From positions 1-27,351 of the IMG/VR virus record IMGVR_UViG_3300031588_000012: a DNA stretch of 27,351 nucleotides. One strand, written 5' to 3'. The position numbers and the translations under genes were made by a program. A model generated the notes under the pieces. It searched no databases and was not told where the DNA came from. It saw nothing but the letters and a program-made list of their open reading frames with translations. This stretch comes from a virus. Its lineage: Duplodnaviria > Caudoviricetes. Below, one piece after another: positions 4,480 through 22,700 of this stretch (the first letter of the stretch is position 1; each line of letters starts with the position of its first letter).

Positions 4480-4901
4480 CGACTGACCATTTCCTTAAGG
4501 CGGGCGTTCTCATGCTTAAGCTGCTCGATCTCTGTCTCCATAGCGTCTCGCTGGGCAGCCAAGCTCTCGTTGTAGAAGAAGGCGTCAATCAGCTCTTCCC
4601 GTATGGCCCCGATCAAGTCGGGGTGCTGGTCGAGGTTGTCGGTGATTTCTTTCCGAGCCTGACCGTCATCGTACTTCTTGGGCGCGAGCTGGTTAAAGCA
4701 ACGCACCGCATGGTCTCGTATCTGGTTAGGGCTCCTGTTTGTCTTTTTGGTTTTCTGTTCCATATCTAGATATACCTCCACATATGCCCCACAATCAGGG
4801 CAACTTAAATTTGACACAATCCCCTCGCCCTCTCGCCCGTAGTCCTCAAAGTCGTGATCCCCGCCCCAGATGAGCGCGTCACCGCAGTGCCAGCAATTCA
4901 C
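4476..4901 (-). CDS. Zinc-ribbon protein fused to an all-alpha (possibly MazG-like) domain
   Basis: N-terminal MNCWHC..LIWGGDHD...LSCPDCGA, then KKYDDGQ...IREELIDAFFY and a coiled-coil tail. Confidence 0.7.
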   Translation of the reverse strand: MNCWHCGDALIWGGDHDFEDYGREGEGIVSNLSCPDCGAYVEVYLDMEQKTKKTNRSPNQIRDHAVRCFNQLAPKKYDDGQARKEITDNLDQHPDLIGAIREELIDAFFYNESLAAQRDAMETEIEQLKHENARLKEMVSR

Positions 4902-5353
4902 TCCCCCTCCTTTTCCGGCGCGTACTTCTTGGCCGACTGCCAGATTTTCAGGGAGGCACCGAATATAGCTTCGGCAGTCTCAACCTTCTTATCGTCCCAA
5001 ACCTTCTGCACGCAGGGCGCAGGGTCGTTGGAGTCAATCACCACGCTAACGCAGCTCATGGAGTCCGGCTTATCAAAGCAGGCTCTGTAGGCCACAAGCT
5101 GCTCGCAGAACTTGTCGTAGAAGACGGGCTTGGCGCGGACGTTCTGGGTCTTGTAGTCGACCACGGCCTCTTTGCCTCCCTTCATGACACAGTGCATGTC
5201 GGTGGTGCCCGCGTAGCCGTCTTCGTGAACGAGGGTCATCTCAGATGCGATGATCTTATCTACGTTTTCCTCGAGCCAATCAAGGTAGTGCACCATGTAT
5301 GGGCGCAGCGCCTTATCAATTTTCAGTTTCTTGAATAATTCCGTTCTGTTCAT
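4898..5353 (-). CDS. PD-(D/E)xK (Cas4/RecB-like) exonuclease, catalytic C-terminal part
   Basis: SEMTL...GYAGTTDM...VVDYKT...EQLVAY carries the E/D/DxK/QxxxY motifs. Confidence 0.85.
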   Translation of the reverse strand: MNRTELFKKLKIDKALRPYMVHYLDWLEENVDKIIASEMTLVHEDGYAGTTDMHCVMKGGKEAVVDYKTQNVRAKPVFYDKFCEQLVAYRACFDKPDSMSCVSVVIDSNDPAPCVQKVWDDKKVETAEAIFGASLKIWQSAKKYAPEKEGE

Positions 5354-5690
5354 CTAGTATGTAATCGTTAATTTTTTCTATCGAGGCGTGTATGTCAGTG
5401 CCGAAGCCGAGCGTCTTGCCCTGTTCGGTGTTGGCTAGCTTCCTCACCCGCCGCACGTAGTCCTTTTCGTCCTCGTGCATTAGGGGTCGGTTAGCCATAG
5501 CGAGCTTGATGTGGTTGTCGATTTTCCACTTCATCAGCCCCTCGTTGGCGACGATGCCCAGGATGCCACTGACGGACGGGTATAGGTTCTGCTTACGAGC
5601 GTGCCGAAGCGTAGTCTTCTTCCCATCCTCCTGCCAGTGGCGGGCCTCACCTTCCGAGGTGTACCAATGTCCTGATCCAGTATCTGCCAT
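5316..5690 (-). CDS. PD-(D/E)xK exonuclease, N-terminal part
   Basis: HWY...TTLRHARKQNLYPSVSGIL...LMKWK...GTDIHASIE matches the PSVT and GTxxH motifs of phage exonucleases. Confidence 0.8.
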   Translation of the reverse strand: MADTGSGHWYTSEGEARHWQEDGKKTTLRHARKQNLYPSVSGILGIVANEGLMKWKIDNHIKLAMANRPLMHEDEKDYVRRVRKLANTEQGKTLGFGTDIHASIEKINDYILDEQNGIIQETEN

Positions 5691-6583: not shown

Positions 6584-7897
6584 TTAATCGAACGGCGTTG
6601 CCTGCTCGAATTTGTTGATTGAACGCCTAAAGAGAAGGTTCACCATTCCGGTATCCCCGTTCCTCTGCTTGTCCAAAATTAAAGTAACTATATCGTCCTC
6701 GGGGTCCGGCTTGTGCAACAGCGCTACTGCGTCAGCGTCCTGCTCCAGCGACCCTCCTTGAGCTAGGTCGGCCATGATCGGGCGGCGGCCACCCATCTTC
6801 ACTGACTCGCGGTTGAGTTGGGCGAGAACAATGAACCCAACACCTAGCTCACGCGCCAGCGCCTTGAGCCCAAGGGATATCTCCGCAATCTCCCGCACGC
6901 GCTCAGATGGCTTAAATCCCGGCACCTTTACCAACTGAACGTAGTCGATGACCACTAGATCAATCTTGTGCGCCTTGCACATCGAGCGACAGATGGCTCG
7001 TATTTCAAACAGGCTCATTCCTGGTTTGTCGATTATCCTGAGCCCTGATGTGTTGATCTTGCCGGTGGCTTTCGTAATCTTCTGAATCTCTCCGTGGGTG
7101 AGTGCCCCTTTGGTTTCCATGCGCTTCATGTCCACCTCTGTCACTGAAGCGATGGCCCTCATAAGGAGGCGGGCATAGTCCATCTCCAAGGAGAAGAAGA
7201 GCACGCCCTTCTTGGCGTTCAGGGCAGCGTGGGTGGATATGTTCATCCCAAGGGTGGTCTTGCCCATGCCAGGCCTTGCGGCCACCACAAACATGTCCCC
7301 TGGCTGGATTCCGTTTGTAAGGTAGTCCAGGTTAGGAATGCCAGTGGGAACTCCCATTGATCCAATCTCGCCGGTCTGACACTTCTCAATGCGGTCTATC
7401 ACAGTAAGTATCTGTTCCTTGTGGGTGGACTTCTCGCCCTCACTCGCGTCGCATTCCGACAGAAGCTTATCAAGCCCGACCATTGCCTCGGCGTAGGATG
7501 AGCCGCCCTTGATTAAGGACTGTGAGACGCTCACAGCCTCACAGAGGGCCCGCTTGCGCTCGCACTCTTTGAGCGGGGTAATGTAGTGCGGCAGATTGAT
7601 GGGCGAGGGAATAAAGTCTCCACACTCATTGGTGCGCAGGACAACATCACCTGAGGTGAATCCTGAGCCGATCTTCTTTATGTCGATCATCAGACGAGCC
7701 CTATCAGAGCTACCACTGTCCGCCATCACCTGAAACATCAGGCGGTGCAGCGGGTCGTAAAAGTGCTCAGGCTTAAGTTGGGCAGCAGCTTTCGAGGTCC
7801 ACTCGTCGCCCCCCAGCATGCAGCCGATGACACCTCTCTCAGCGTCCAGGTCAGCAAGCAACGGCACAGGGAGTGTTCCGGCTTCAGTCGCCTCCAC
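6584..7897 (-). CDS. dnaB: Replicative DNA helicase, DnaB family
   Basis: DAERGVIG N-domain, Walker A AARPGMGKT, FSLEM, IDYVQL, LAQLNR, EQDAD and KQRNG. Probable start is the GTG at 7897 after GGGGGAGG. Confidence 0.95.
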   Translation of the reverse strand: MEATEAGTLPVPLLADLDAERGVIGCMLGGDEWTSKAAAQLKPEHFYDPLHRLMFQVMADSGSSDRARLMIDIKKIGSGFTSGDVVLRTNECGDFIPSPINLPHYITPLKECERKRALCEAVSVSQSLIKGGSSYAEAMVGLDKLLSECDASEGEKSTHKEQILTVIDRIEKCQTGEIGSMGVPTGIPNLDYLTNGIQPGDMFVVAARPGMGKTTLGMNISTHAALNAKKGVLFFSLEMDYARLLMRAIASVTEVDMKRMETKGALTHGEIQKITKATGKINTSGLRIIDKPGMSLFEIRAICRSMCKAHKIDLVVIDYVQLVKVPGFKPSERVREIAEISLGLKALARELGVGFIVLAQLNRESVKMGGRRPIMADLAQGGSLEQDADAVALLHKPDPEDDIVTLILDKQRNGDTGMVNLLFRRSINKFEQATPFD

Positions 7898-8108
7898 GGC
7901 CTCCCCCTTCCCCTTCCTCTGGGTGCTCGAGGCCAAGCTTGGCCAATAGCTGGTCGATGTAGACGCACTGCTCAAAGCAGTCCTCGCATATGTACCCCTT
8001 GGTGACTGAGCGGTCATAGGCTATCGCCTCCCGCCTCTCCCCGCAGCTCCAGCATTTTCCTTGCTTTGGCTCTATCCAGTAAATTGACGATTTGGTGCTC
8101 ATGGACAT
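7884..8108 (-). CDS. Small zinc-finger protein
   Basis: CWSC...ICEDC. Its stop overlaps the probable DnaB start. Confidence 0.7.
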   Translation of the reverse strand: MSMSTKSSIYWIEPKQGKCWSCGERREAIAYDRSVTKGYICEDCFEQCVYIDQLLAKLGLEHPEEGEGGGRGGD

Positions 8109-8415
8109 AGGTGATTGAGATTATCGTTTCTTCCTCCGCGCGGTGGGCGACTTTTTCTTGCTCGCACGAGAAGGTGATGTCTGATGCGCGGTCGTCATAA
8201 ATGAGGCCAGCGTATCTGAGCCCATCGAGCACATACTTCGGAGTGAGGTTGTCGGGGTCGAGGAGCCGCACGCGGCGGCTAATAAACCTGATAGCAATGC
8301 GGCCTGGGCTTTCTCCTTCTCCTTCCTCCGTCCCCAGTGGTTCACACCGAAAAGGGCATTCAGAGATGGGATCCGATACTTGATCGTCAGCTTGAGTGTT
8401 CGTGGGTCTTCGCAT
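8014..8415 (-). CDS. RusA-like Holliday junction resolvase, catalytic part
   Basis: IAIRFISRRVRLLDPDNLTPKYVLDGLRYAGLIYDD...ETIISI matches RusA DxDN..K...D...DD. AAGGAGG lies upstream of the ATG. Confidence 0.8.
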   Translation of the reverse strand: MRRPTNTQADDQVSDPISECPFRCEPLGTEEGEGESPGRIAIRFISRRVRLLDPDNLTPKYVLDGLRYAGLIYDDRASDITFSCEQEKVAHRAEEETIISITYVHEHQIVNLLDRAKARKMLELRGEAGGDSL

Positions 8416-8435
8416 TCTATTATTTCCTCCTTCAT
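8121..8435 (-). CDS. Overlapping ORF carrying a RusA-like N-terminal motif
   Basis: LKLTIKYRIPSLNALFGVNHWGRRKEKEKAQAALL resembles the strand-PSxN-basic helix N-terminus of RusA-like proteins. Confidence 0.6.
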   Translation of the reverse strand: MKEEIIECEDPRTLKLTIKYRIPSLNALFGVNHWGRRKEKEKAQAALLSGLLAAACGSSTPTTSLRSMCSMGSDTLASFMTTAHQTSPSRASKKKSPTARRKKR

Positions 8436-8454
8436 GTTGATTTTATGTGAACCA

Positions 8455-8595
8455 CTACTTGGTTTCTTTAAGGTCAGCCGCGATTAGGTTTCGGATGTAC
8501 TGAGACATGGTGACGTACTGTTGATCAGCACGCCGCCTAAGCTTCCGTTTCATTTGGGGTGGCATGGGTACAGCGATGATTGTTTTTTCCTTCAA
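8455..8595 (-). CDS. Ribbon-helix-helix (CopG/Arc-like) regulator
   Basis: KTIIAVPMPPQMKRKLRRRADQQYVTMSQYIRNLIAADL. TTG start at 8595 after AAGGAAAGG; first gene after the promoter. Confidence 0.8.
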   Translation of the reverse strand: MKEKTIIAVPMPPQMKRKLRRRADQQYVTMSQYIRNLIAADLKETK

Positions 8596-8631
8596 ACTTT
8601 TCCTTTCCTTGGCGCGATGCCAGTGCCGCCG

Positions 8632-8691
8632 ATTATACAGAGAGCGAAAGCTAACGCAATAAAAAAAATTGTAAATTATTAACAAGTTAAT
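8632..8691 (-). promoter_or_regulatory. Sigma70-type promoter of the replication operon, with UP element and palindrome
   Basis: Minus strand TTGCGT (8659-8654), 16-nt spacer, TATAAT (8637-8632). A T-tract lies upstream, and ATTAAC-AA-GTTAAT is at 8678-8691. Confidence 0.7.
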
Positions 8692-8707
8692 GACCACCTC
8701 ATACCAT

Positions 8708-8732
8708 GTGGATATCCTTTGCGGAAATCCAC
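8708..8732. promoter_or_regulatory. Imperfect inverted repeat (operator or terminator-like hairpin)
   Basis: GTGGAT-A-TCC-TTTGC-GGA-A-ATCCAC between the 8755 gene stop and the promoter; no U-tract follows. Confidence 0.45.
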
Positions 8733-8754
8733 TTATTCACTATGGGTGTCCGCC

Positions 8755-8997
8755 TTATTTGAGGCGGCGAACTTTTTTTATAACGCCGACCGGGATGCAG
8801 CAGTAATCTCCGACCGGATCCTTTTCGTCGCCCTCGTACTGGCCGGAAGCGAGGACCACATACTCCTTGGTCTTTTTTGCAAGCACGCCCTCATTCCAGC
8901 AGTTGGATAATTTGGCAGCCGACAAAGGCTCATTGATGTAAGCAGTGATATCCACCCACTCAATGCGGACGCGCTGACCTGGTGCAGGTAGCCTCAT
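8755..8997 (-). CDS. Phage hypothetical small beta-barrel protein
   Basis: VRIEWVDI...CWNEGVL...VVLAS...IPVGVIKKV resembles a pattern common in phage proteins. ATGA-coupled to the upstream gene. Confidence 0.8.
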   Translation of the reverse strand: MRLPAPGQRVRIEWVDITAYINEPLSAAKLSNCWNEGVLAKKTKEYVVLASGQYEGDEKDPVGDYCCIPVGVIKKVRRLK

Positions 8998-10731: not shown

Positions 10732-13700
10732 TTAATAACCAAGCGCTTTGCGCATAATCTCTTTCCGACGATCACCGGAGGGGCCTGGAGCACGGCGAGG
10801 TTGCAAGTTGCTTCCGCTTTTCCTCTTACTCTTGCCAGAGGACTCCGATTTCCCTCGCCATGGCTCTTGGCCAAGGTGCAGCTCCCCGTAGGAGTTGTAC
10901 ATTTCCACTGCCGCCTCAATATCGGATCGGTACTCCTCAGGGATGGCCTGAATAAGGGCCTTGTATTGCGTCTCGGTTGGCAGAGGCGAGAAAACCTTCC
11001 TCACGGGATGGTTGGCCAGGAAGCCAGCCCTGACTCTTGCATCTATCTCATCCTCGTCTAGTGTTTCCCCATCTCTCTCAGCCACCTCCCGCAGGGTGCG
11101 CCTGGCGTCTGCGACAGCCTCGGTGAACATATTGATGTCATTACTGATGGCACCCAGCGCCATATTGTTATAGTGAGGTTTCACTAGGCGATGGCTGGTG
11201 ACGCCTCCTCTCCACCCGGGCTTCACGGAAAGATGCTGCATGCGCCCTGCCACCCGCATCCAATTCTCTGCGTTAAGCCGTTTGGTAACCTTGGCCTCTT
11301 GGCTCAATCCGGGCAACCCCGAGCCGTCACCAGTGACGGTATTCAGGATTTGCGCCCACTCAAGGTACCCACCAAGACCAACCATCTGAAGCCCAGGCCT
11401 CACCATTTGCTGGTAATCCATTGGTCGGCCGGTGGCTAACCATTTCGACGTTTGCTCAGCCATACCGCCTATGACGGACAAGAAGAAAACTCTGTTCTCG
11501 ATTGAGAAGTTGCGGCCAGTCTCCGGGTTGAGCTTGGCGTTTGCCGCATCGCCCGTGATTCCGAACATCCCGACCCGACTAGTCCTATCCAGAAAAGCCA
11601 GCGCGTTGTGCCTGCTTATGATATCGGATTCTCCCTTTTCGTTCTCCCACTTGAACTCCAGAATGTTAGCCTTCTTGCGCAGCATCTTCTCCTCCCAACG
11701 CTCCCGGAGCCACACAAAGGCAAGGCTGATTGGCATCATCGCCAAATAAGGCATCATCGATTGCAGCATCAGGCGATAGTTAAACTCACCCGCCGCATCG
11801 TTCGCCTTCCAGTTCCGCCTTACATCGGCGGCCTTCTCAATCGACCACCCTACGAGTGGGTTGGTCATGCGCCCGCCGTGCGAAGAGAAGACGTAGGATG
11901 GCCGAGACATAATGCTGGTTTCCTTCGTGATCTCTGCTTGGGCCATTAGGGCCAGTCTCCGCAGTTGATCATTGTTGAATACCTCCGATTTACCGCCGGC
12001 CATGCGCTTCCTCCGTGCCTCTTGCGCTAAGCTCTCTAACGACATGCCGTAGGTAGCTAGCATATCGGTCATGTAATTAAACGCATCCTCCGACATGTGT
12101 GTGCCAAAAAATCCACCCTTCACGTTCTTGTGGGTGAACCGGAACCCTTTCCCGATGTCGGCCTCAGGATTTGCGTCAAGGTACTCCACGGCGTCGGTAA
12201 CGAGCTTATGGTATGCCTTCCAGCCGTTGATCGTGTTCGCAGCGGTCATCCATAACCCGGCCTGAGTGAATACGGCGTGAGGGTGAAGGGTTGCGTAGCG
12301 CGCCTCGTGGCCCATCTTACCGAATCCCATGATGCCGGTGCCAAGCAGCTCCCGAACCGACCGCGAGAAGTAGACGGCACCTTTCTTCGCCACGTTCCTG
12401 GTCTTACCCCAGACGCTGTCAGCCATCGGGTCAAGGCCGGGGACCTCCCGGTTCACGGCGGCGACAATGCGGGTCATGCCATCACGCATTGCGTCCTGAT
12501 CGCCATGGTGCAGTTCGTTGAACTTAGTCTGCCACCCCGCATCCATGTCTACCTGCCGGCCCAGTGCCTGGAAGAAGCTGCCCGCCGCCTGTGTCAGGGT
12601 GCTGAATCCCCTAAGCGACTGAACGATGCCCATTCGGTTAAAGCCGAACTTAGCGAAGGGCATGGCGAACATCGAGGAGGTGTCAATAATGGCCGTCTTT
12701 CCCGACTGAACCACTAACCCTGTGAGCATCTGCAAAACTTCGTATGAGGCACCCATTTCGGCTGGGGTCCTGGCGGCCTCATTGCCAATCATGGCAAGTA
12801 TTCTGGCCTTAACTCTCGTTAGGCGCTTCAGGTTGTCGCTCGCGGATTTAAGTGTTTTCCAGCCAGCCGGCCCATACAGGTCTTTAGCCTCCTGCTTAGC
12901 CTGGGCAAGTGTTATCTTACCACCGTGCAGTCGACTCCGAATACTCTCCAGCACGCCTAGCTGCTCACCAAATTCCCTTTCAGCGGCGGCAAACTCCTGC
13001 TTCAACGGCTCAAGCTGCTGGCCGAATGCGGCGTGCGCAGAGAACACCCTCATGATGCTCAGGACCTGCTGCTCCTCGAAGGTAGAGTAGCTGACCCAGT
13101 CAGACGGGAAGCCCTCCGTTGTGCGCGCGTCAAGCATAACGCGTCGGAGAGTGATTTGGTTATCTTTAACAGAATCAGGGTTAAGGGCTTGGTCAATGTT
13201 GCTATAGAGGACATTGAATTTGTTTTGAAGCCTCCCTGTTACTTTACCAACGTGCTCCGCCATGGCTTCCTGAGATGCTTGGTCGCCACTCATGTTACCA
13301 TTGGTGATCTCGTACAGCTTCTCAGCGAACCCGACTATGTCCCCCTCCTCCACTGAGTTAAACGCATCTATTACTTCGCTCCTAGATGCTCGGCGGTGGT
13401 ACCGGTTGTCTTCATCGCCCTTCGTCCCACCCTCATCAAATAGTGACTCGCCCGCCTGCTCCACCAGAGGGCGGACAAATTGGTTCCAGACATTTCCTGA
13501 GTACTGCTTCTTTGTGGTCTCGCGCAACTCAGCGTTCTTATCGGGGTCAAGGTAAGCCTCAGCGGTGTCCTTCCTCACATCAGAGACGGACTTTGTGACG
13601 CTTCTGGACTGCTCCACGCCGCCCTCATCAACATGGGTCCAGATCTTCATCCACTCACTGCCATCCTTGCCCATATCAATAGCTAGGGTGGCTATCTCGC

Positions 13701-16700
13701 CGCCAATGGAACGACTGACAGTAAACAGCTCAGCACCGATGGCTTTCCGAAAATGCTCCTGCTTTCCTTTCCCATGCTTAACCTTCAGCCCCATTCCTTC
13801 CTGGTGCTCGATGATGGTCTTGGACATGCTACCCGTAAGGCGCAGTAGTTCCTCGACGGCCGGCCATGCCTCGGGGTTTGATCTCAGGGCTACTGATATC
13901 AGGTTCTCCCCATTCCTCAACATGAGCTCCACATTTTTTAGGCCGGCATTGATCGCCTCCTCCACACTGTCATGCTCATCCAGTAGTTGTTGGTTGGACT
14001 CAAAGTATGCAAGTGCAGGGCCGTATACTAAATCATTAAAGATAGTCTTGCTTCCTTCCCTCTTAGAGAGGCCTAGCGCCTTGATCGCGGCAGTCTCAGA
14101 TTCAACCCAGTCAGCGGACAATGGCTCCAGCTCTTTGTGCCGCCTGCTGAATGCCTCAAACTGTGCGATTCGGTGAATTATGTTCCCGAGAATTGGCGAG
14201 CCGGTTTGCTCGAGCTGATCCCTGAATGTTCCGGCGGCCATGAGCGTTACGCTATCCCGCGCCGCTGTATGGTCACGAACAGTGTGCTCACTGGAAATCA
14301 CATCGTAGACGCGCTTCATGTAGTTCCAGGTCTTGTCCTTCTTGCGACCTGGGTAATGCAGCCAGAGGTAGAGAGCCTCCATCTCGACAGCCAGTTTTTG
14401 CTGGTACTTCTTGGGCGACATGCCCTTGGTCTTGCGCGGGATGAGCGTGAACTCTGTCGGCTTCGTTTTCTGGATACTTGTAGATGATTGATCTGGGGAG
14501 GTTGGCACCACATATTGTGACCCTTCCGTTGCCTTCCACAGCGAGCTTCCCTTTACCACTGAGTCGGGTCTCTGCTCTATTTGCAGCGCTCCCTCAATGG
14601 AGGCCATCTCCTCAATCAGGATTTTCCTGGTGGAGTTATCGAAGTCGATAAACGCTTGTGCGTCCCGCATGCCTTTCACCTTCTTGCGGTGTTCTCTTTT
14701 GTGCTCGGTGAGCTTGATGAGTAGGCGCTCAGCGAGGGACCTGTGTGCTAAGAGCCCACGAATAGATACCCGAGCCTTATTGACGGCAGTCTCATCCGAT
14801 GTCATTACGAGATTAAGAATTTTGTTAATCTCGCCCCGCTTCCCAATCGACCTCAGCTTTGATAAATCAAAGATGTGCTGGTTATCTCGGCCTATATAGG
14901 ACATGAGCACCAGCGCGGCAGTTTGATCATCCGGGTTGGTGGTGATGCTTTGGAGCACGGCCTGCAACTCCGGTGAGATATTGTTCTCTATAAGCTCAAC
15001 AGCCTCCCCTATCCCTTGCGCGCTGAAGTCGATTGCCTCGCCTGGAGACACCTCAATAGCAGCCACGGCATCAACCAAGTTCATTAATTTGTTCCCTGCT
15101 GCCCCTCGCTCGGTCTCGGTCGCGCCCTTGCCTGGTGCCAGTATCTTCTGAACCCTTTCTACTGCGCCTGGAATCTTCTCTCTCTTTAGGTACTTCGCTA
15201 CCTTGACCAGCATGTCTCCCGACTCTCCGGAATTGCGGCTCAGGGCGGTGATGAAGTTACGTAGCGCCTTGTTTGAGGCCTTGGTCCGGGTATTGGCATC
15301 TGTGTAATTGCTGAGGAGCTCTTGAAGCTCCGCGTTGCTAGCCTCAATGCTGTCTAGTTCGTCCTTAACTATCCCCTCCTGCTTTGCCCGGTTTTTTTGC
15401 ATTTTCAGGAAGGTCTTCATTAAGACCTCCCAAAGGTCGTGCTGTGCTCGCTCCTTGTTAACTAAATCATTAATATCCAGCTTCTCAATAACGGACTCCC
15501 CATTATCTACCAGTCGCTGGTTAATGAGAGCTATCACCTCTTCAGGGCTCTTGGGTCGTTTCAGGAACCTTGACGTGAACTGCTTGAAGTCGATCCCGTC
15601 TTGGTTTAGTTGGTCGAGCTTGAACTTGTCGAACATCTGACTCAGCACGTCTTGAACCTTGGTCCAGACGGCAACGTCGCCGCGCAGGGCTGATTCATTG
15701 CTTACGTCAGGATCTGCTGAAATTGTCGGATCATCGGAGACTTTACGCAGCCTTCTGCCTTGAGCGTAATCAGTGCCACCTCCCTGATTAACAGACAAAG
15801 CCTCGGTGTGCTCAGGGGACAGACCCAGTTCTCTGACTAAAGAGCGCACCCGTTCGTCAGCCATGTTCTCCTCTAAGTATGGCTCGGTCTTTACGTGCTT
15901 TTGTTGTTGGGTGTCTTGAATTGTTAAAAGCGTGGTCTCAATGACCTCACCCAACATGCTGTCGGATATCTTACTCCGTCCATCTATTAACCCTAGGCCG
16001 TCAAGGACATCTAGGATTATATCCTTAAGCACGCCAATCAGGGATTGAAGGAAGTTTTCCCCTTTGGTTTGGCCCTCAATGGCTGCAAGGAAATTCTGGA
16101 AATCCGGCTTAGTCATCGCCTCAGAAACAAACTCATGAAGGTCCGTGAGCCCGTAAGGGTGCGCTTCCTTGCCCCATTTGATCTGCCTGCCTTCACGACG
16201 CTCGTGTTCCTTGCGGGCCCTAACAAGCATGCCGTCCAGCTTAGTAATCAACGCCATGGACACAGGAGACAGCTTGTCTCCCCTGTTGGTCTGGAAGTTT
16301 CCAATCGCTCTGATAAGGATCGCGTGAAGCATTTCATGCATCACCGTCTGCTGCATTTGCTCTAATGTCTCGTGGTCCCCGACGTAAATGGTTATTTCAT
16401 TTCGCTCATCGTTATAGCTCCCAAGAATGCTACCCACATTAGGGTGCTCCTTAACCAACCGAAGCTTCACCCCTTTTGCTAGCCCTGACTTCTTGATGAC
16501 CTCAATCAGCCCCTCAAGTAATTTATTACTAAACCCCTTTTCTCCTTTAGTCTCCCAGCTCTCTAAGAAAGCTTGGGCATCCGGGAAGTTCTTACGCATG
16601 GCCCGCATGGCCTTATTCGCTTCCTCGCGCGAGAAACCATCAAGCGTAGAGTGCTTGTACTGGCGTTCGGGAGTCATATTCATCTTGTACTTTATTCCGT

Positions 16701-19700
16701 ACCGCGTACTAGAGGAGTGGCTTTCGGCCCTGCCCTTGGCGTCTTCGCCGAAATAGCCTGTGCCATACCTCTTCATCATCCTTGCCTGTTCGGAGGACCA
16801 TTCCAAAAGCTCTAATTCAGTCATCTCGCCCGGGTGCTTGGGAGGGCTGGAGATGGATTCGCCTCGCACAGCGGGATCCGCCACCCAGGCCGCGTGGGTA
16901 TACTTGTCACCCCATACATCCTTCCAGCCCGCCTTGCTATGAAGAATGTTTGGGTGATAGGTTTGGAGGTGCAGCCCCGAGGGTGCCTGTTCCAATTTCC
17001 TGAGCTTCGGGGCGTTGATAGCAACCCTATTGTCAAGCTCCCCGCCCAATACCTTGAGCTTGGGGAGGGGGATATATCCATGATGGCCCTCGCCGGGTTT
17101 GACCCATGCCTCGCCATGTGTAGTAAGACCTGGCGACTCGCCGGCAAAGTCGGCGGCTGTTCGCCCGACCAAACTCGACCTGCGTGCGCCGGATTTGGGG
17201 TCTATGCGGTCAAGCTTCAAGTGACCGTCAACAACCTCCAACTTTCTGAGATTAAAGTTATCCGACATGTAATTCTCATTGTCGCTCATCTGCTCCCGCG
17301 CAAACATGCTGTCGCTCATGGCTATGTGCAGGTGAGAATGAACTGCAGTGAGCTTTGGCAGGTTAACATACGTGCCTCGAATGGTCGCAAACTGATTGAT
17401 ATCTATATCTTTTGCCTTAGGGAGGTACTGGGTCACGAGATCGGGATCTCCTTTGGCCCCAATGGTCTTGAGGTCAGGCATTGACGTGTTGTAGATTATG
17501 AACTCCAGTGCCCCCTTCTCATTCCCACCAGTGCGCGCGTAGCGTTCCCCGTATATACCCCGCGAGACCTCTTGAATGCCCGGAATAATTGCACTTTCAG
17601 CCTTGAGCGCCCCAACCTTTTTTAGGTTCCCAAAGTCATAGAGCCTCCGGGAAGGCGTCGTCCAGCCCACTACGGTCTCGTGGGGCCCAATGTCTCCCTC
17701 CCTAACCACAAGGTAGGATAAGGATTCATTCACTAGCTGAATAGAGGATTGATCTATCACATACAGCCCGGGTCCGCTGTGGGTCGAGTGGTCACTTTTC
17801 ACCATGTCGGCCAACGCCTCCCGCCGCGCCAGCCCGACGTCAAGCTTAACCCGGCCAAGCCGGGTTCTGAATAACGACACACTGGTTGCCGTGATTTCCG
17901 ACAAGGAAGGAAGGAGGGAATCGATGATGATGGCATCATTCGCCCATCCGGATCCAGGAACGTGGGCACCCGTGTAGCCGTATGCTGGCGCGGCATTGCT
18001 CTCCCAATTTTCATCGTCTTCTGGGCCGATACGCTTAAGCTTAGGTGCATCAACTCCGACAATTTCGAGGGGCTCGATTATCTCCTCCAGGGCCGGCAAG
18101 TTGAGCCTTCGTCCCCGGCCCTGGCGAACCCGAATCCCCAGTCCATGCCTGCCAGTCGCGTGATCGAGGCCACCTCTGTCAATCGCCTCAGCATCTTCAA
18201 TCGTGGGCGACGCCGCCTCCCTGCCGAAATTCATTTTTGCCCTACTAACAACCCTCAAGGCAGGATATTCGTCATTCATATTCACATCCCCCAGGAATCC
18301 CAGGTGTTGAAGCTTGGGCGCAATGATTGGCCGGGGTCCTTCCGCTTGAATGCGATCCGATGATTGATTCTCCGACTTGGATGTCGTAAAACCTTCACCT
18401 CGACCTAAAAAACTTACGTGGCTGTACTGTTCTATTTTGCCGGTGATGCTTTCAAGGTTCTCAGTATTTAGTACGGGGTGGAGGACCGCGACATTCTTGG
18501 AGGAATAGACGTTATGTGCCCCAATGGAGGCCTCTCGGTCTTCGTATCCAATCGAGATGTCACCTACAATGTGCTTAATGTTCTTAGGAAGGTGCACTGG
18601 GCCCGTTTGGCCTGGCGAGACACGCACAATGACTCCGGCTTGGAGAACGCCTTCATCACTAACTTCAACACCGGATGTCTTTCCGTTATTAGTTACGGCG
18701 TTGTAAATTATGCGAGTAGTATCGGTCGAGTACCTATGGTCACCATGCCCCGCAGCTCGTCGCTCGATTCTCTTAAAGACCTTCGGGTTCGGGCGGCGGG
18801 GGGTTGTGATTGGCTCATCTTCAACGGACTCGTCCCACCAACCTGGCTGGACCTCGTCAAGAATGTCGTGGTCCTCCACCCAAGGATCCAGTGAAAGCTC
18901 GCCATGCACGAGGCGCGTTTTAGACACTTTATTAAGGGCCTCTCTTAGGACAGGGTCCACATCGCCAGACGTGGCGTCTGGCCCCAGCGCCACCAACTTT
19001 GCTAAGGCTCTTGCGAAGTCACGGTCTTGCAGGTAAGCCGCTCCACCCTTGATGTTTTTGGAGCGAAGGTAGTCCTCGGTCACATCAGCGTACGCGGGGT
19101 CAATTTCCTGTGTTTCGAGAGTCCGGCCCTTGGGCGACTCGCCCAGCGTGTCGCCTTCCATCCGAAGCATAACTTGCGGGACGCCGTTATCGTAGTAGGC
19201 ATGGAAGTCACCCTTAGACAGGTAACTCTTGGCAGTTCCCCCTATGCCGATGCACCAGGTGGTCCCAACGGCGGCCTCCTGCAAGGCATTAACGTCCTCT
19301 TGCTCCTTTGATCGCTTAAAGATATGCCAGCCTTTCTTGTTGGACAGCTCAGCTTTCTTCGTAGCGTCTTCCGCCATCTGGATCGCAGCGGCCTCGAAGG
19401 CCTCTTTGATCGTCTTGCCGGCCTCCACCGGTTTGTACTCGAGCACAGGAATGCCCTCATCGCCGTCGATGCCGAAGTGACGCATCCCCACCTCCACCTC
19501 ACCCCACCTCGGCCTGAGCGCATCCCGTACATAGGCCGCGCCCGCCCCAGTGAGAACCATGACTGGATGGTCGTTATCGACCCTAATCTCATCCCTCTTG
19601 CCGTCAGGCCTGTATGAGTACTTGGCCGCATGATAAACAATCATAGCGGCCTCAGTGGGCGTATAGATGTCACCTTCCAATTGTCCGGTTAGGCCTCCGA

Positions 19701-22700
19701 GATCACGATCTGTAAGCCGATATTCAACCCTGCCGTGGTTTGGGAAGGGCACGACACGCTCTTCCAGATAATGTGCAAGACTCGATATAGCATCCATGCG
19801 TTCAGAAGTTCTCTTCCGAGCGTCTTCATAGATCAACTCATTGAGAGATTCCGGCTCCTCTTGCTGGAGCCTCCACATTTCCCGCCCCAAGGGGGAGGCG
19901 AGATCGCGCTCCGCCCCATTATTCATATTGAGTGACTGGAATGGCGGATTTTCGTTTTTGAAGTATTGCTCTACGCGGGTCTTCTCGCTATCAATTACAA
20001 GTTTCGGGAGGTGGGCCTCTATATCCTCCGAAATGCCGTGCTCGCGATATCCTGAGATTGTTTGGAGGATAAGCATAGCAACGTCATCCATCTCCTTGAT
20101 ATTCATAGGCTCCCGCCGCCCACCCCTCTTCGTCTTCCCTTCTATGGAGATTGTCATGCGCTGCCCGGCAACCTTCATGTCCTTATTCTCCTCGGTCATC
20201 GGCCAGGTTAGGTCCTTAAACGTATCGAAAAAGCTTACTAGCGTGGCGTCTTGGTCCTGTAGGGCCGCGAGGTCTTTGCGGCTATACCGCTCCACGGTTG
20301 TATCTCCGCGTTGATGGCCAGTGACAATAGCCTCCCGCGCGTGAGCAACCATGTGAGCTGCAAGGGTTTGCGGATCGGAGTGCTGACCGCCTGTAATTTT
20401 TCGGTAGATGTTCTCCAGTAGCGCGACCAGCTTATCCCATAGGGTTCGCTGCTCTTCAGTCTGCAGAGTCTCTTCGCGGATGAACTGCAACGCCCGCACG
20501 CGCTCTTCCTCAGTCGCAAGATCAGAGCCATATAGGCGAGCAACCTCAACGCTGATCTTGTTTTGCTGAGCCTCGGACAGGCTGCCCCACAAGGCCTCAA
20601 AGGCCTGCGTGAACTCGCCGTCGCCGTAGATGTAGTGCGCTAGCTCGTGGTCTATGTTGCTCTTGACCTCCGAGGCTTGAATGAGGTTCAGGTTGATTGC
20701 AATGGTGCCGTCTTCCTGTAGGCGTGCGGCCCAAAATTCTGCATCACTATCGGATTCAGCTCCTGGGCCACGAACGAGCTTAACTATCCCTTGCAGCTCT
20801 GGATGTTTATCTAAGTATTCCTCAAGAGCCTTAACAACTCCCTTCTCTCGTGTATCAACCGGGGTTTGCTCCAGCTTCTCAAGCGCCTCCTGGCTGATGA
20901 GGTTGTTGCGTTCCTTCTCCTCCTGCTGCTCCTTCTTGTCTGCGTCATGCAGGGCGTTGTGAGCACTAGCCCCATCAGAGCCGTCGTTCACGACCGGGTT
21001 AATGTCTATGGTTACACTGCCATCGTCGGGGTTCAGTGACGTTGTCTCAATCAGCGTGCCATCGGACGGCGTCAGGTTGTTGTCTTGGATGTTTTTTGCA
21101 AGCTCTGCTCGTACTTTCTCATCCTTGCCCACCTCGCGCTCTGTCTGCCCGTTATCTTGAACACTTTCTCCAATGCTCCCGATGTCGATAGTTTCTTCAG
21201 GTCTTGTTCCAGTTTGGTCAGTTTCATGATCATTTATTCCTTCACGTATTGCTTCTGTTAAAGTTTTCTGAAAAGCCACAAGCGAATTAACGGTTGAATA
21301 AGTGTCAGCCTCTTTTCTCGCTTCCTCCTGGTTTGCGTGGCGGATATGAAATTCATTTATGCCAGCGTTCGGGTCTATGAGCACCCGCATAAGCCCCTCT
21401 CCATCAGGGACGGCCTCACCGTTCTCGCTAGCCCATTCAAGGATATCATACACGGAGTCCTTAGCCCAGTTACTGACTCTGGACGGAAGCTTGGGAGCCT
21501 CAATGTCCATGCCGGCCGTTCCGCCACCATCGTCTATGGCATCCTGAATTATTTTTTGCTTGAGGGCCTCATCGCTCTCATTGCCCTCGCTATCTATCGC
21601 GTAGTCGCCTTCATCATATATAGTCAGCTCATCCGCTCGGCCCTCCAGAGCTTGGACCCCTTCCTGATATTCGCCTCCTTCAATTAGGCCGGTCTCATCA
21701 TCCATATACCCCTGGTCAGTTCTTGATAAACCCTCACCAGTGTCACGCCCTCTACCGTACTTAGTGTCTTCCGTCACTTGGCCAAGGAGCTCCACATTTC
21801 CCTCTGCCAAGGCGGCTACATCCTGGCTCTCGTCATACGCCTCTTGAAGCACAGACTGGCCTGGGGCTACGTATTCATGGATAGCAGTTCCTGAGGCCTG
21901 TGCCTTTCGCTGACTTCTCGCAGAGTCCCTGAGGTTGCTGTATTGCTTTTGAGTTAAGCTGTACTTCGTTGGGTTATTAAGGGGAACCGGCGTGGACAGC
22001 CTGGCAGACCCAATCACGTTATAGTTCCCCGCCTTAAGTACTTCATCTAAGGTCATATACTTGACCGCTTTGCTCTTCTTGGTTTCGCCAGCAGGAATAG
22101 GAACTTTGTAGAGGGACTTCTTGCTCGTCCCGCGTGCGCCTGATTTATGAATGGGGAGAATCTGGACTTTAGTGGGGTCAGCCTCAGCGCGAGTCTGATG
22201 GTGCAGGACAACCATCCTGGTGGTGTTACCGACGGAGGATGTGTTTCTTGTCCCAGTCCTCGCGCGCCCCTCGCTAACAAGTATCTCCCCAAGGGCGTTC
22301 AAAGCCTCGCTGTTCTTGGCGTCGTACTCCTTGTTATCTTTGTTCTCTTCAACCTCGGCAATGGCAGCATCAAGCGCGTTACGCAGCTCATCGCCAGCTT
22401 CATGCCCCTCCGGCTCCAGCACATCATAGAACGCTGGATAGGTGACACTCTCGCCCTTCTCCAAGTTGTCATCGCGGGTGCGGACGGATCTGTCGGCCTC
22501 TTGAGTTTGGAAGGCAAGGAGGCCAACCGGGAAGGCGTCGTCCAGAACCGTCAATTTACCATCCCGGATTAGCTTAAGCTCAGTAAGGTTTTTTATGATT
22601 TTAGCAAGGGTGCGGGTCTTGTTCTCGGTGTTGGATATTACGCGCTTCGGTGTTCCACCCATCCGGTTCAGTTCCGCAGCACCCTCAGGGCCGTATTCCA

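Follow-up and report, generated by a model that had tools for sequence, protein, structure and literature searches.

The resolvase RusA of E. coli (1Q8R, 2H8E; PF05866; PHROGs 34 and 1682) is a single chain of 120 amino acids that forms a homodimer, which cuts four-way junctions with Mg2+. According to the available part of PMC1636454, its residues D70, D72, K76 and D90/D91 are critical, R69 and N73 contact DNA, and residues 13-16 contact DNA as well, with N15 and R16 proposed to serve in sequence recognition. Overlapping phage genes whose products form a complex are also already known. For example, lambda Rz and Rz1 are encoded in embedded or overlapped frames (PMC6139136, PMC5295617, each available in part) and their complex is a heterotetramer (PMC6139136). 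Likewise, 11 overlapping viral gene pairs with interacting products have been collected (PMC8227390). Such overlaps are usually explained by overprinting, in which a new protein arises on an old gene, and the available text of PMC8227390 frames its pairs in this way.

Here we describe a phage locus at which a RusA-like domain appears to be divided between two overlapping reading frames, A and B. With E. coli RusA it has in common the predicted fold, the D-x-D-N motif, the lysine, the distal Asp pair and an Arg-rich loop ahead of D-x-D-N. It differs in that its halves lie in different frames, in having two residues between the last Arg and the first Asp, and in a D-to-K distance of 7 or 9 compared to 6. 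Like Rz/Rz1, the locus has two frames that appear, on sequence evidence, to be separately initiated and to be both selected. However, Rz and Rz1 are two membrane-anchored proteins, whereas A and B look like halves of one globular enzyme domain, and here intact single-chain homologues reveal what was split. The pairs of PMC8227390 resemble the locus in having two frames and two proteins acting together, but in our case both modules appear to come from one ancestral chain instead of an old gene and a newcomer. In the mainly open-access literature that we searched, we found no description of one domain divided between overlapping frames, or of this family.

The locus lies in a 27,351-base virus record of a marine phage, a metagenomic fragment that is 39% complete; this whole stretch of DNA is the one analysed and is called the window below. 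Its features, in window positions, are as follows.

8435-8121, minus strand: ORF A, 104 aa from an ATG start; RusA-like N-terminal half (strand 1, PSLN helical turn, HW, helix 1), then a basic, unconstrained tail.
8415-8014, minus strand: ORF B, 133 aa from an ATG start, in the -1 frame relative to A; a leader through A's module, followed by the RusA-like catalytic half and a tail that extends into the next gene.
8432-8426, minus strand: Shine-Dalgarno-like AAGGAGG for B, in A codons 2-4, 10 nt before B's ATG.
8283-8396, minus strand: conserved A module, L14-L51, with constraint on A-frame residues.
8369, minus strand: first base of P23-S24-L25-N26 of A.
8283-8301, minus strand: doubly constrained stretch, the end of A helix 1 and the start of B strand 2.
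8104-8301, minus strand: the part of B that holds the catalytic half, from R39 to around V104, with strands 2, 3 and 4 and R48/R50, D53-P-D55-N56, K60, D64 and D75; it contains invariant columns.
7884-8108, minus strand: ORF C, a 74-aa CxxC...CxxC protein in A's frame, overlapping the last 95 nt of B.

A sequence-only reading of this DNA had described ORFs 8435-8121 and 8415-8014 as both beginning with ATG and overlapping by 295 nt, with AAGGAGG in the first codons of A as the Shine-Dalgarno sequence of B, and with a helix of A and a strand of B on the same nucleotides. All of this was re-found on the minus strand: the helix and the strand correspond to A46-L51 of A (8300-8283) and R39-F44 of B (8301-8284). 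Once ORF C is counted, B is dual-coded over 390 of its 402 nt. ORF C is open and similar in six close loci (L094, L001, L003, L098, L099 and L017), and it also overlaps the front of the 8017 ORF.

The same reading had asked whether an indel could have created the overlap. Contigs from other runs show no differing letter and no gap across it (X2, 7834-8800; X7, 8043-8486), and further identical contigs cover parts of the region (X3, 8140-8800; X5, 8128-8384; X8, 8233-8415), at depths of 3-5. The overlap is therefore not an assembly indel. One RNA run (X18) contributed a single 199-nt contig at 7833-8031, outside the A/B overlap.

The locus is neighboured by a ribbon-helix-helix-like gene on one side and DnaB on the other, with SSB, exonuclease and primosomal genes downstream. 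Replication or recombination genes flank the window locus. Of 17 sampled loci, for which 54 of 86 ORFs were scanned, 10 likewise have such neighbours (helicase, exonuclease, annealing or primosomal). As to DnaB itself, its true start is probably a later GTG near 7895, since the family match begins at residue 50-55.

B matches PHROG 34 (RusA-like) with an E value of 4.5e-7, over residues 38-111 only. No RusA model matches A, and neither window A nor window B has a PF05866 match or reaches the gathering cut-off of that family; 2 of 50 B cores touch Pfam RusA, with a best E value of 0.028. A B profile run against PDB sequences found no RusA.

The nearest relatives that we found by sequence are single-chain 'SxN...HW' RusA-like phage proteins (alignment A5, 47 sequences; e.g. 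L199, L223 and L183). In HHalign comparisons, A falls on columns 5-46 of their profile (probability 95.9%, E value 5.6e-9) and B on columns 57-126 (99.4%), bearing out the assignment of a RusA-like N-terminus to ORF A and, together with the PHROG 34 match, of the catalytic core to the -1-frame ORF. Run on the window, the single-chain profile splits into two overlapping pieces, one per frame: profile positions 2-40 at 8277-8396 (E value 8.5e-4) and 49-117 at 8110-8310 (E value 7.5e-13). Its only match in the PDB is RusA (1q8r, E value 0.0058). Single-chain proteins share with A plus B the PSLN, HW and helix 1 elements, R..LDxDN, K, D, DD and Q; they differ in using one frame and in placing PSLN 50-59 residues before the Asp in most cases, commonly 55. 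A motif scan of viral contigs gave at least 120 loci which, with seven added loci, amount to 118 distinct sequences. Of the 118 listed, 79 have the N-terminal module in frame and 34 have it in the +1 frame; no locus has it in the third frame, and in 5 the module is weak. Because the locus departs from the single-chain form and fails the Pfam cut-off, we call it RusA-like, not RusA proper.

Some single-chain genes are poorly served by current annotation: one is unannotated (L178:236-598, MW202801.1) and in two others an annotated late start drops the N-terminal half (L177, OZ195742.1; L180, MK448927.1).

Structure predictions point the same way. The single-chain model of L199 (pLDDT 93.4) aligns to residues 6-118 of 1q8r_A with Z 9.0 and rmsd 3.2 over 107 aligned residues, the next match having Z 4.9. 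The 72-residue core of B, modelled alone, reaches pLDDT 88.5 and aligns to E. coli RusA (1q8r_A 52-118) with Z 5.0 and rmsd 2.7 over 65 residues, a match tied with 4-OT at Z 4.5 and with a Foldseek E value of 0.19. As the core folds confidently alone, this model does not show B needing A. Nonetheless the RusA fold, a four-stranded mixed sheet and two helices, is found only in A and B taken together: B corresponds to three strands and helix 2, and A to strand 1 and helix 1 of the single-chain form. A keeps the alternating hydrophobics of strand 1 and the helix face used by the single-chain relatives.

Residues D53, D55, N56, K60 and D75 of B are invariant in 50 of 50 sequences. From alignment and model, these acids and the lysine would correspond to the D70, D72, N73, K76 and D90/D91 group of RusA, with one extra residue before the lysine. 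Similarly, PSLN of A would be the counterpart, residue by residue, of the DNA-contacting turn S13-R16. The Arg-rich loop is present in B (R48 in 39/39 loci, R50 in 38/39), and so is P-S-L/W-N in A (S in 39/39, N in 38/39).

The dual-coded arrangement is widespread. Searches with B and its alignment returned 175 sources, of which 168 fit the B motif and represent 111 distinct sequences, a set that takes in the window itself and leaves out L093, the window's own contig. In 110 of these 111 loci, PS[LW]N is found in the +1 frame and is stop-free to the catalytic Asp, so that the overlap first seen in one sequence is conserved in others; the 111th locus has PSLY. The register from PS[LW]N to the first catalytic Asp is 37 codons in 108 loci, reaching down to 46% nucleotide identity, and 39 and 40 codons in one each. 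Judged from these loci, the arrangement is far beyond chance. Looser registers of 41 codons (L236, L244 and L292) and, at the loosest, 44 codons (L217 and L250, where A stops right after helix 1) also occur. We checked four of the seven sources that fail the B motif: three are dual-coded (L010, L063 and L144) and L175 is a partial match of 16 residues.

Among the A-profile and B-type proteins examined, the A module and the DxDN core were not seen in one chain. The A profile recovers 328 clusters at 50% identity (E<=0.001), and a DxDN core occurs in none of its best 150 proteins; single-sequence searches with A gave no match, its relatives surfacing with the profile only. The B profile recovers 1014 relatives (E<=0.001), and among the 135 B-type proteins examined none carries the A module in the same chain, and none has a substitute N-terminal half recognised by the A profile. 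The lone regex match for the A module in these 135 (P0219) is spurious. No B without A in the +1 frame occurs among the 111 loci.

Five of the best 150 A-profile proteins (P0116, P0141, P0085, P0160 and P0121) are gene calls that fuse the A module to the C-terminal part of B; they are without strand 2 and DxDN and are presumably deletions or assembly errors, P0116 resembling a deletion form of L080. In cultured phage the dual form was not found: the window B query gave no match, and two other B queries gave weak matches, of which six were examined and all are single-chain. Two dual-coded loci lie in contigs of a Planctomycetales (L173) and a Verrucomicrobiaceae (L174) assembly, a weak hint at hosts given that these contigs may be mis-binned phage DNA.

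Next, we examined conservation by codon position in 39 loci below 80% nucleotide identity to one another (mean 60%, range 46-79%), numbering B codons from D53; this is the site-level check of constraint that had been suggested for the overlap. Constraint in the A frame spans B codons -46 to -9, where the invariant bases are third positions of B and hence second positions of A, while constraint in the B frame starts at -14. On the A side, P and S are kept in 39 of 39 loci, N, W and R in 38 and K in 36, and L51 at position -9 is kept in all 39. The PSLN serine at -36 is present in 39/39 although written in both codon families (AGY 30, TCN 9). On the B side, from -14 onwards, R39 is kept in 37 of 39, S in 36, R48 in 39, R50 in 38, and L, D, P, D and N in 39.

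Between -14 and -9 the two frames leave their marks on the same letters. The second position of B is T at both -11 and -9 in 39/39 loci. Accordingly, the A leucine at -9 is encoded by TTA or TTG only (39/39), compared to CTN in 27 of 36 for the A leucine at -32; the A serine at -11 is TCN only (26/26), with the 13 other residues found there also T-starting; and the codon for A position 49 starts with T in 39/39. Reciprocally, the Ile, Val, Phe or Leu codon of B at -9 always ends in T, unlike the hydrophobic codons of B further downstream, and all B codons opposite L51 at the 8283-8301 site do so (39/39). The pattern recurs in 16 further loci from the motif scan (Leu at -9 in 15/16, T at -11 in 16/16, Arg at -14 in 15/16). 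At the level of codons, this shows protein-level constraint on both frames, on shared bases for about six codons (~19 nt): helix and strand share bases, and the hydrophobic strand of B imposes T-starting codons on the helix of A. Because A-frame constraint runs five codons beyond the onset of B-frame constraint, any single crossover between the frames drops a selected element, as the sequence-only reading had foreseen for a simple frameshift fusion.

The frames are also open more often than expected. In our null, the residues of one frame are fixed and its codons reshuffled. All 39 loci have B open across the module of A, where 11.6 would be expected, and all 39 have A open over strand 2-DPDN, where 12.8 would be expected; the third frame shows no excess of openness in the same test on the 39 loci. 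Applied to ordinary genes in 519 tiles, the null proved roughly calibrated (0.181 versus 0.189 observed; 0.128 versus 0.160 observed). P-values are inflated, since the loci are related.

Both frames have starts of their own. A start codon precedes strand 1 of A in 38 of 39 loci, the remaining locus being cut by the contig end. All 15 loci with an in-frame stop at -56 or closer have such a start (4.9 expected), and in these loci the stop means that A cannot be reached by reading on from upstream in the A frame. An upstream start is present for B in 39/39 loci, and 20 of the 39 B leaders bear one of three recurring motifs, upstream of the A module. Of the 39 loci, 16 have a Shine-Dalgarno match of at least four bases at the A start and 20 have one at the B start; the A start of the window has none.

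The tail of A (8121-8282 in the window) is open across the B core in 30 of 39 loci, compared to 6.0 expected, and ends in a Lys/Arg-rich run. It displays no residue-level constraint in the 39 loci, as seen from the third positions of B being free downstream of D53. In some loci A stops at -10, +4 or +9, and the tail is thus dispensable there. Two separately initiated chains explain everything described so far except this open tail.

We propose, with a probability of roughly 0.7, that A and B form an obligate two-chain RusA-like nuclease, likely A2B2, acting on branched DNA. This extends the suggestion of a two-chain resolvase made from a dual-coded locus, and the conserved overlap, the double constraint, the separate starts and the match of the single-chain halves to A and B all speak for it. 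From their separate starts, A and B would be translated as two chains that build one RusA fold, A docking strand 1 and helix 1 onto the three-stranded sheet of B. Two such AB units would then form the RusA dimer. In this model the metal-binding acids would come from B, and the DNA contacts that RusA makes around S13-R16 would fall to A. The predicted role is cutting Holliday junctions or other branched DNA in phage replication and recombination; both assembly of A with B and junction cleavage are expected by us from sequence comparison. A 1:1 co-fold of A (52 aa) with B (72 aa) scores 0.48 compared to 0.01 for the best control, a score that likeness to solved RusA may drive. Contact agreement in this co-fold is at least 97% and partner pLDDT at least 71. 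In calibration, 18 of 157 solved complexes passed at <=0.60, as did both passing mismatches, and likeness tends to let the halves of a known fold pass.

Other readings of the locus have to be weighed against this one. Both proteins may be made, with B active alone as a homodimer and A acting as a regulator, inhibitor or specificity factor. The B core is modelled confidently alone (pLDDT 88.5) and holds all the RusA catalytic residues listed in the available part of PMC1636454, and a co-fold score of 0.48 is weak support for pairing. We nevertheless regard a self-sufficient B as unlikely: A keeps the strand 1 hydrophobics and the helix face used in the single-chain fold, the 135 B-type proteins offer no substitute N-terminal half that the A profile recognises, and B without a +1-frame A is absent among the 111 loci. 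That the whole locus is an assembly error or a decaying pseudogene is hardly credible. The window is indeed fragmentary metagenomic DNA (39% complete), backed by contigs at depths of 3-5, but identical contigs come from several other runs, the same register recurs in 108 loci down to 46% nucleotide identity, and the catalytic residues are invariant in 50/50 sequences.

Two further readings join the frames into one chain. An ordinary -1 frameshift would link the front of A to the core of B, one of the overlapping elements being a shadow of the other. The order is right for this, A lying 5' of B and B being in the -1 frame, and in the loci of register 44 (L217 and L250) helix 1 ends ahead of strand 2, so that a shift there loses less. 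However, A is constrained five codons past the onset of B, a slippery heptamer is present in just 5 of the 39 loci, at two positions, and PSLN-to-Asp would measure about 37 residues compared to 50-59 in most single-chain relatives. The A frame of the window has no X XXY YYZ heptamer (Y = A or T), in agreement with the sequence-only reading. We therefore consider frameshifting highly improbable. Retrograde recoding, in which the ribosome or RNA polymerase backs up 20-60 nt after helix 1 and rereads in frame B, would retain both constrained elements in one chain, and retrograde realignment has been demonstrated in a synthetic T4 gene 60 cassette (PMC5009743, available in part). Yet a stop of A near the take-off point is lacking in most loci, where it lies 44-48 codons past the catalytic Asp; the at least 30 open upstream codons of B, its own start and its leader motifs are left unaccounted for; and no joints appear in the contigs, which are nearly all DNA. 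A matched codon pair is present in 8 of 39 loci at best and repeats in 8 of 39, scattered; neither is conserved, and the pattern tested for bypassing or hopping of the T4 gene 60 type was not found in the 39 loci. Such a backward jump is accordingly very unlikely in our view.

Turning to the origin of the two-chain enzyme, we think it likely that the domain was split into two chains, that the genes then slid until helix and strand shared bases, and that this state became fixed across hundreds of uncultured phage lineages beside single-chain relatives. Measured from PSLN to Asp, the commonest single-chain form exceeds the dual form by about 55 nt. A single-chain gene would have lost about 55 nt (3n+1) of the linker between helix 1 and strand 2, probably stepwise, which would shift the catalytic half into the -1 frame, preceded by a leader that has a start of its own. 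Registers 44 and 41 may be steps toward 37 or be derived from it. A tree of 96 cores (70 columns) is poorly resolved and has five label changes, at least three of them forced by supported branches. L215 and L247 are dual-coded and yet cluster with another single-chain clade, which may mean a second origin; nonetheless a single clade for the dual forms is not rejected by the AU test (p = 0.099).

We also considered a pre-existing overlapping gene in the single-chain ancestors. The -1 frame is open over the N-terminal half in 22 of 46 cases compared to 11.3 expected. This excess was not counted as support, since neither a start nor a leader is conserved in those frames and the loci are related to one another.

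In the usual account of overlapping genes one partner is new. Here the two modules that overlap resemble the halves of a single old domain, and single-chain forms and looser registers (41 and 44 codons) persist. Fission followed by overlap is directly testable in an enzyme of 120 residues with an established cleavage assay. If true, this would be a natural and testable case of one active enzyme made from two frames of one sequence. A split DNA-cutting enzyme might let the phage control activity by subunit ratio. Gene callers usually keep one frame, and as a result B looks like a truncated RusA without a Pfam match and A like a basic hypothetical protein.

Two other observations concern the rest of the window. 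On the minus strand, 10732-25008 is an ORF of 4758 aa in which a stretch near residues 2850-2905 weakly resembles zinc peptidases; otherwise it matches no family significantly. In addition, an exonuclease (PHROG 298) is split between ORFs 5316-5690 and 4898-5353 on the minus strand, which overlap by 38 nt, and contigs from three runs read through the junction with no gap. L003/L004 and L017/L018 shift frame at the same exonuclease site, at GATGAG or GATGAA, and L001/L002 are continuous. The exonuclease may thus be a second conserved split gene of this phage group.
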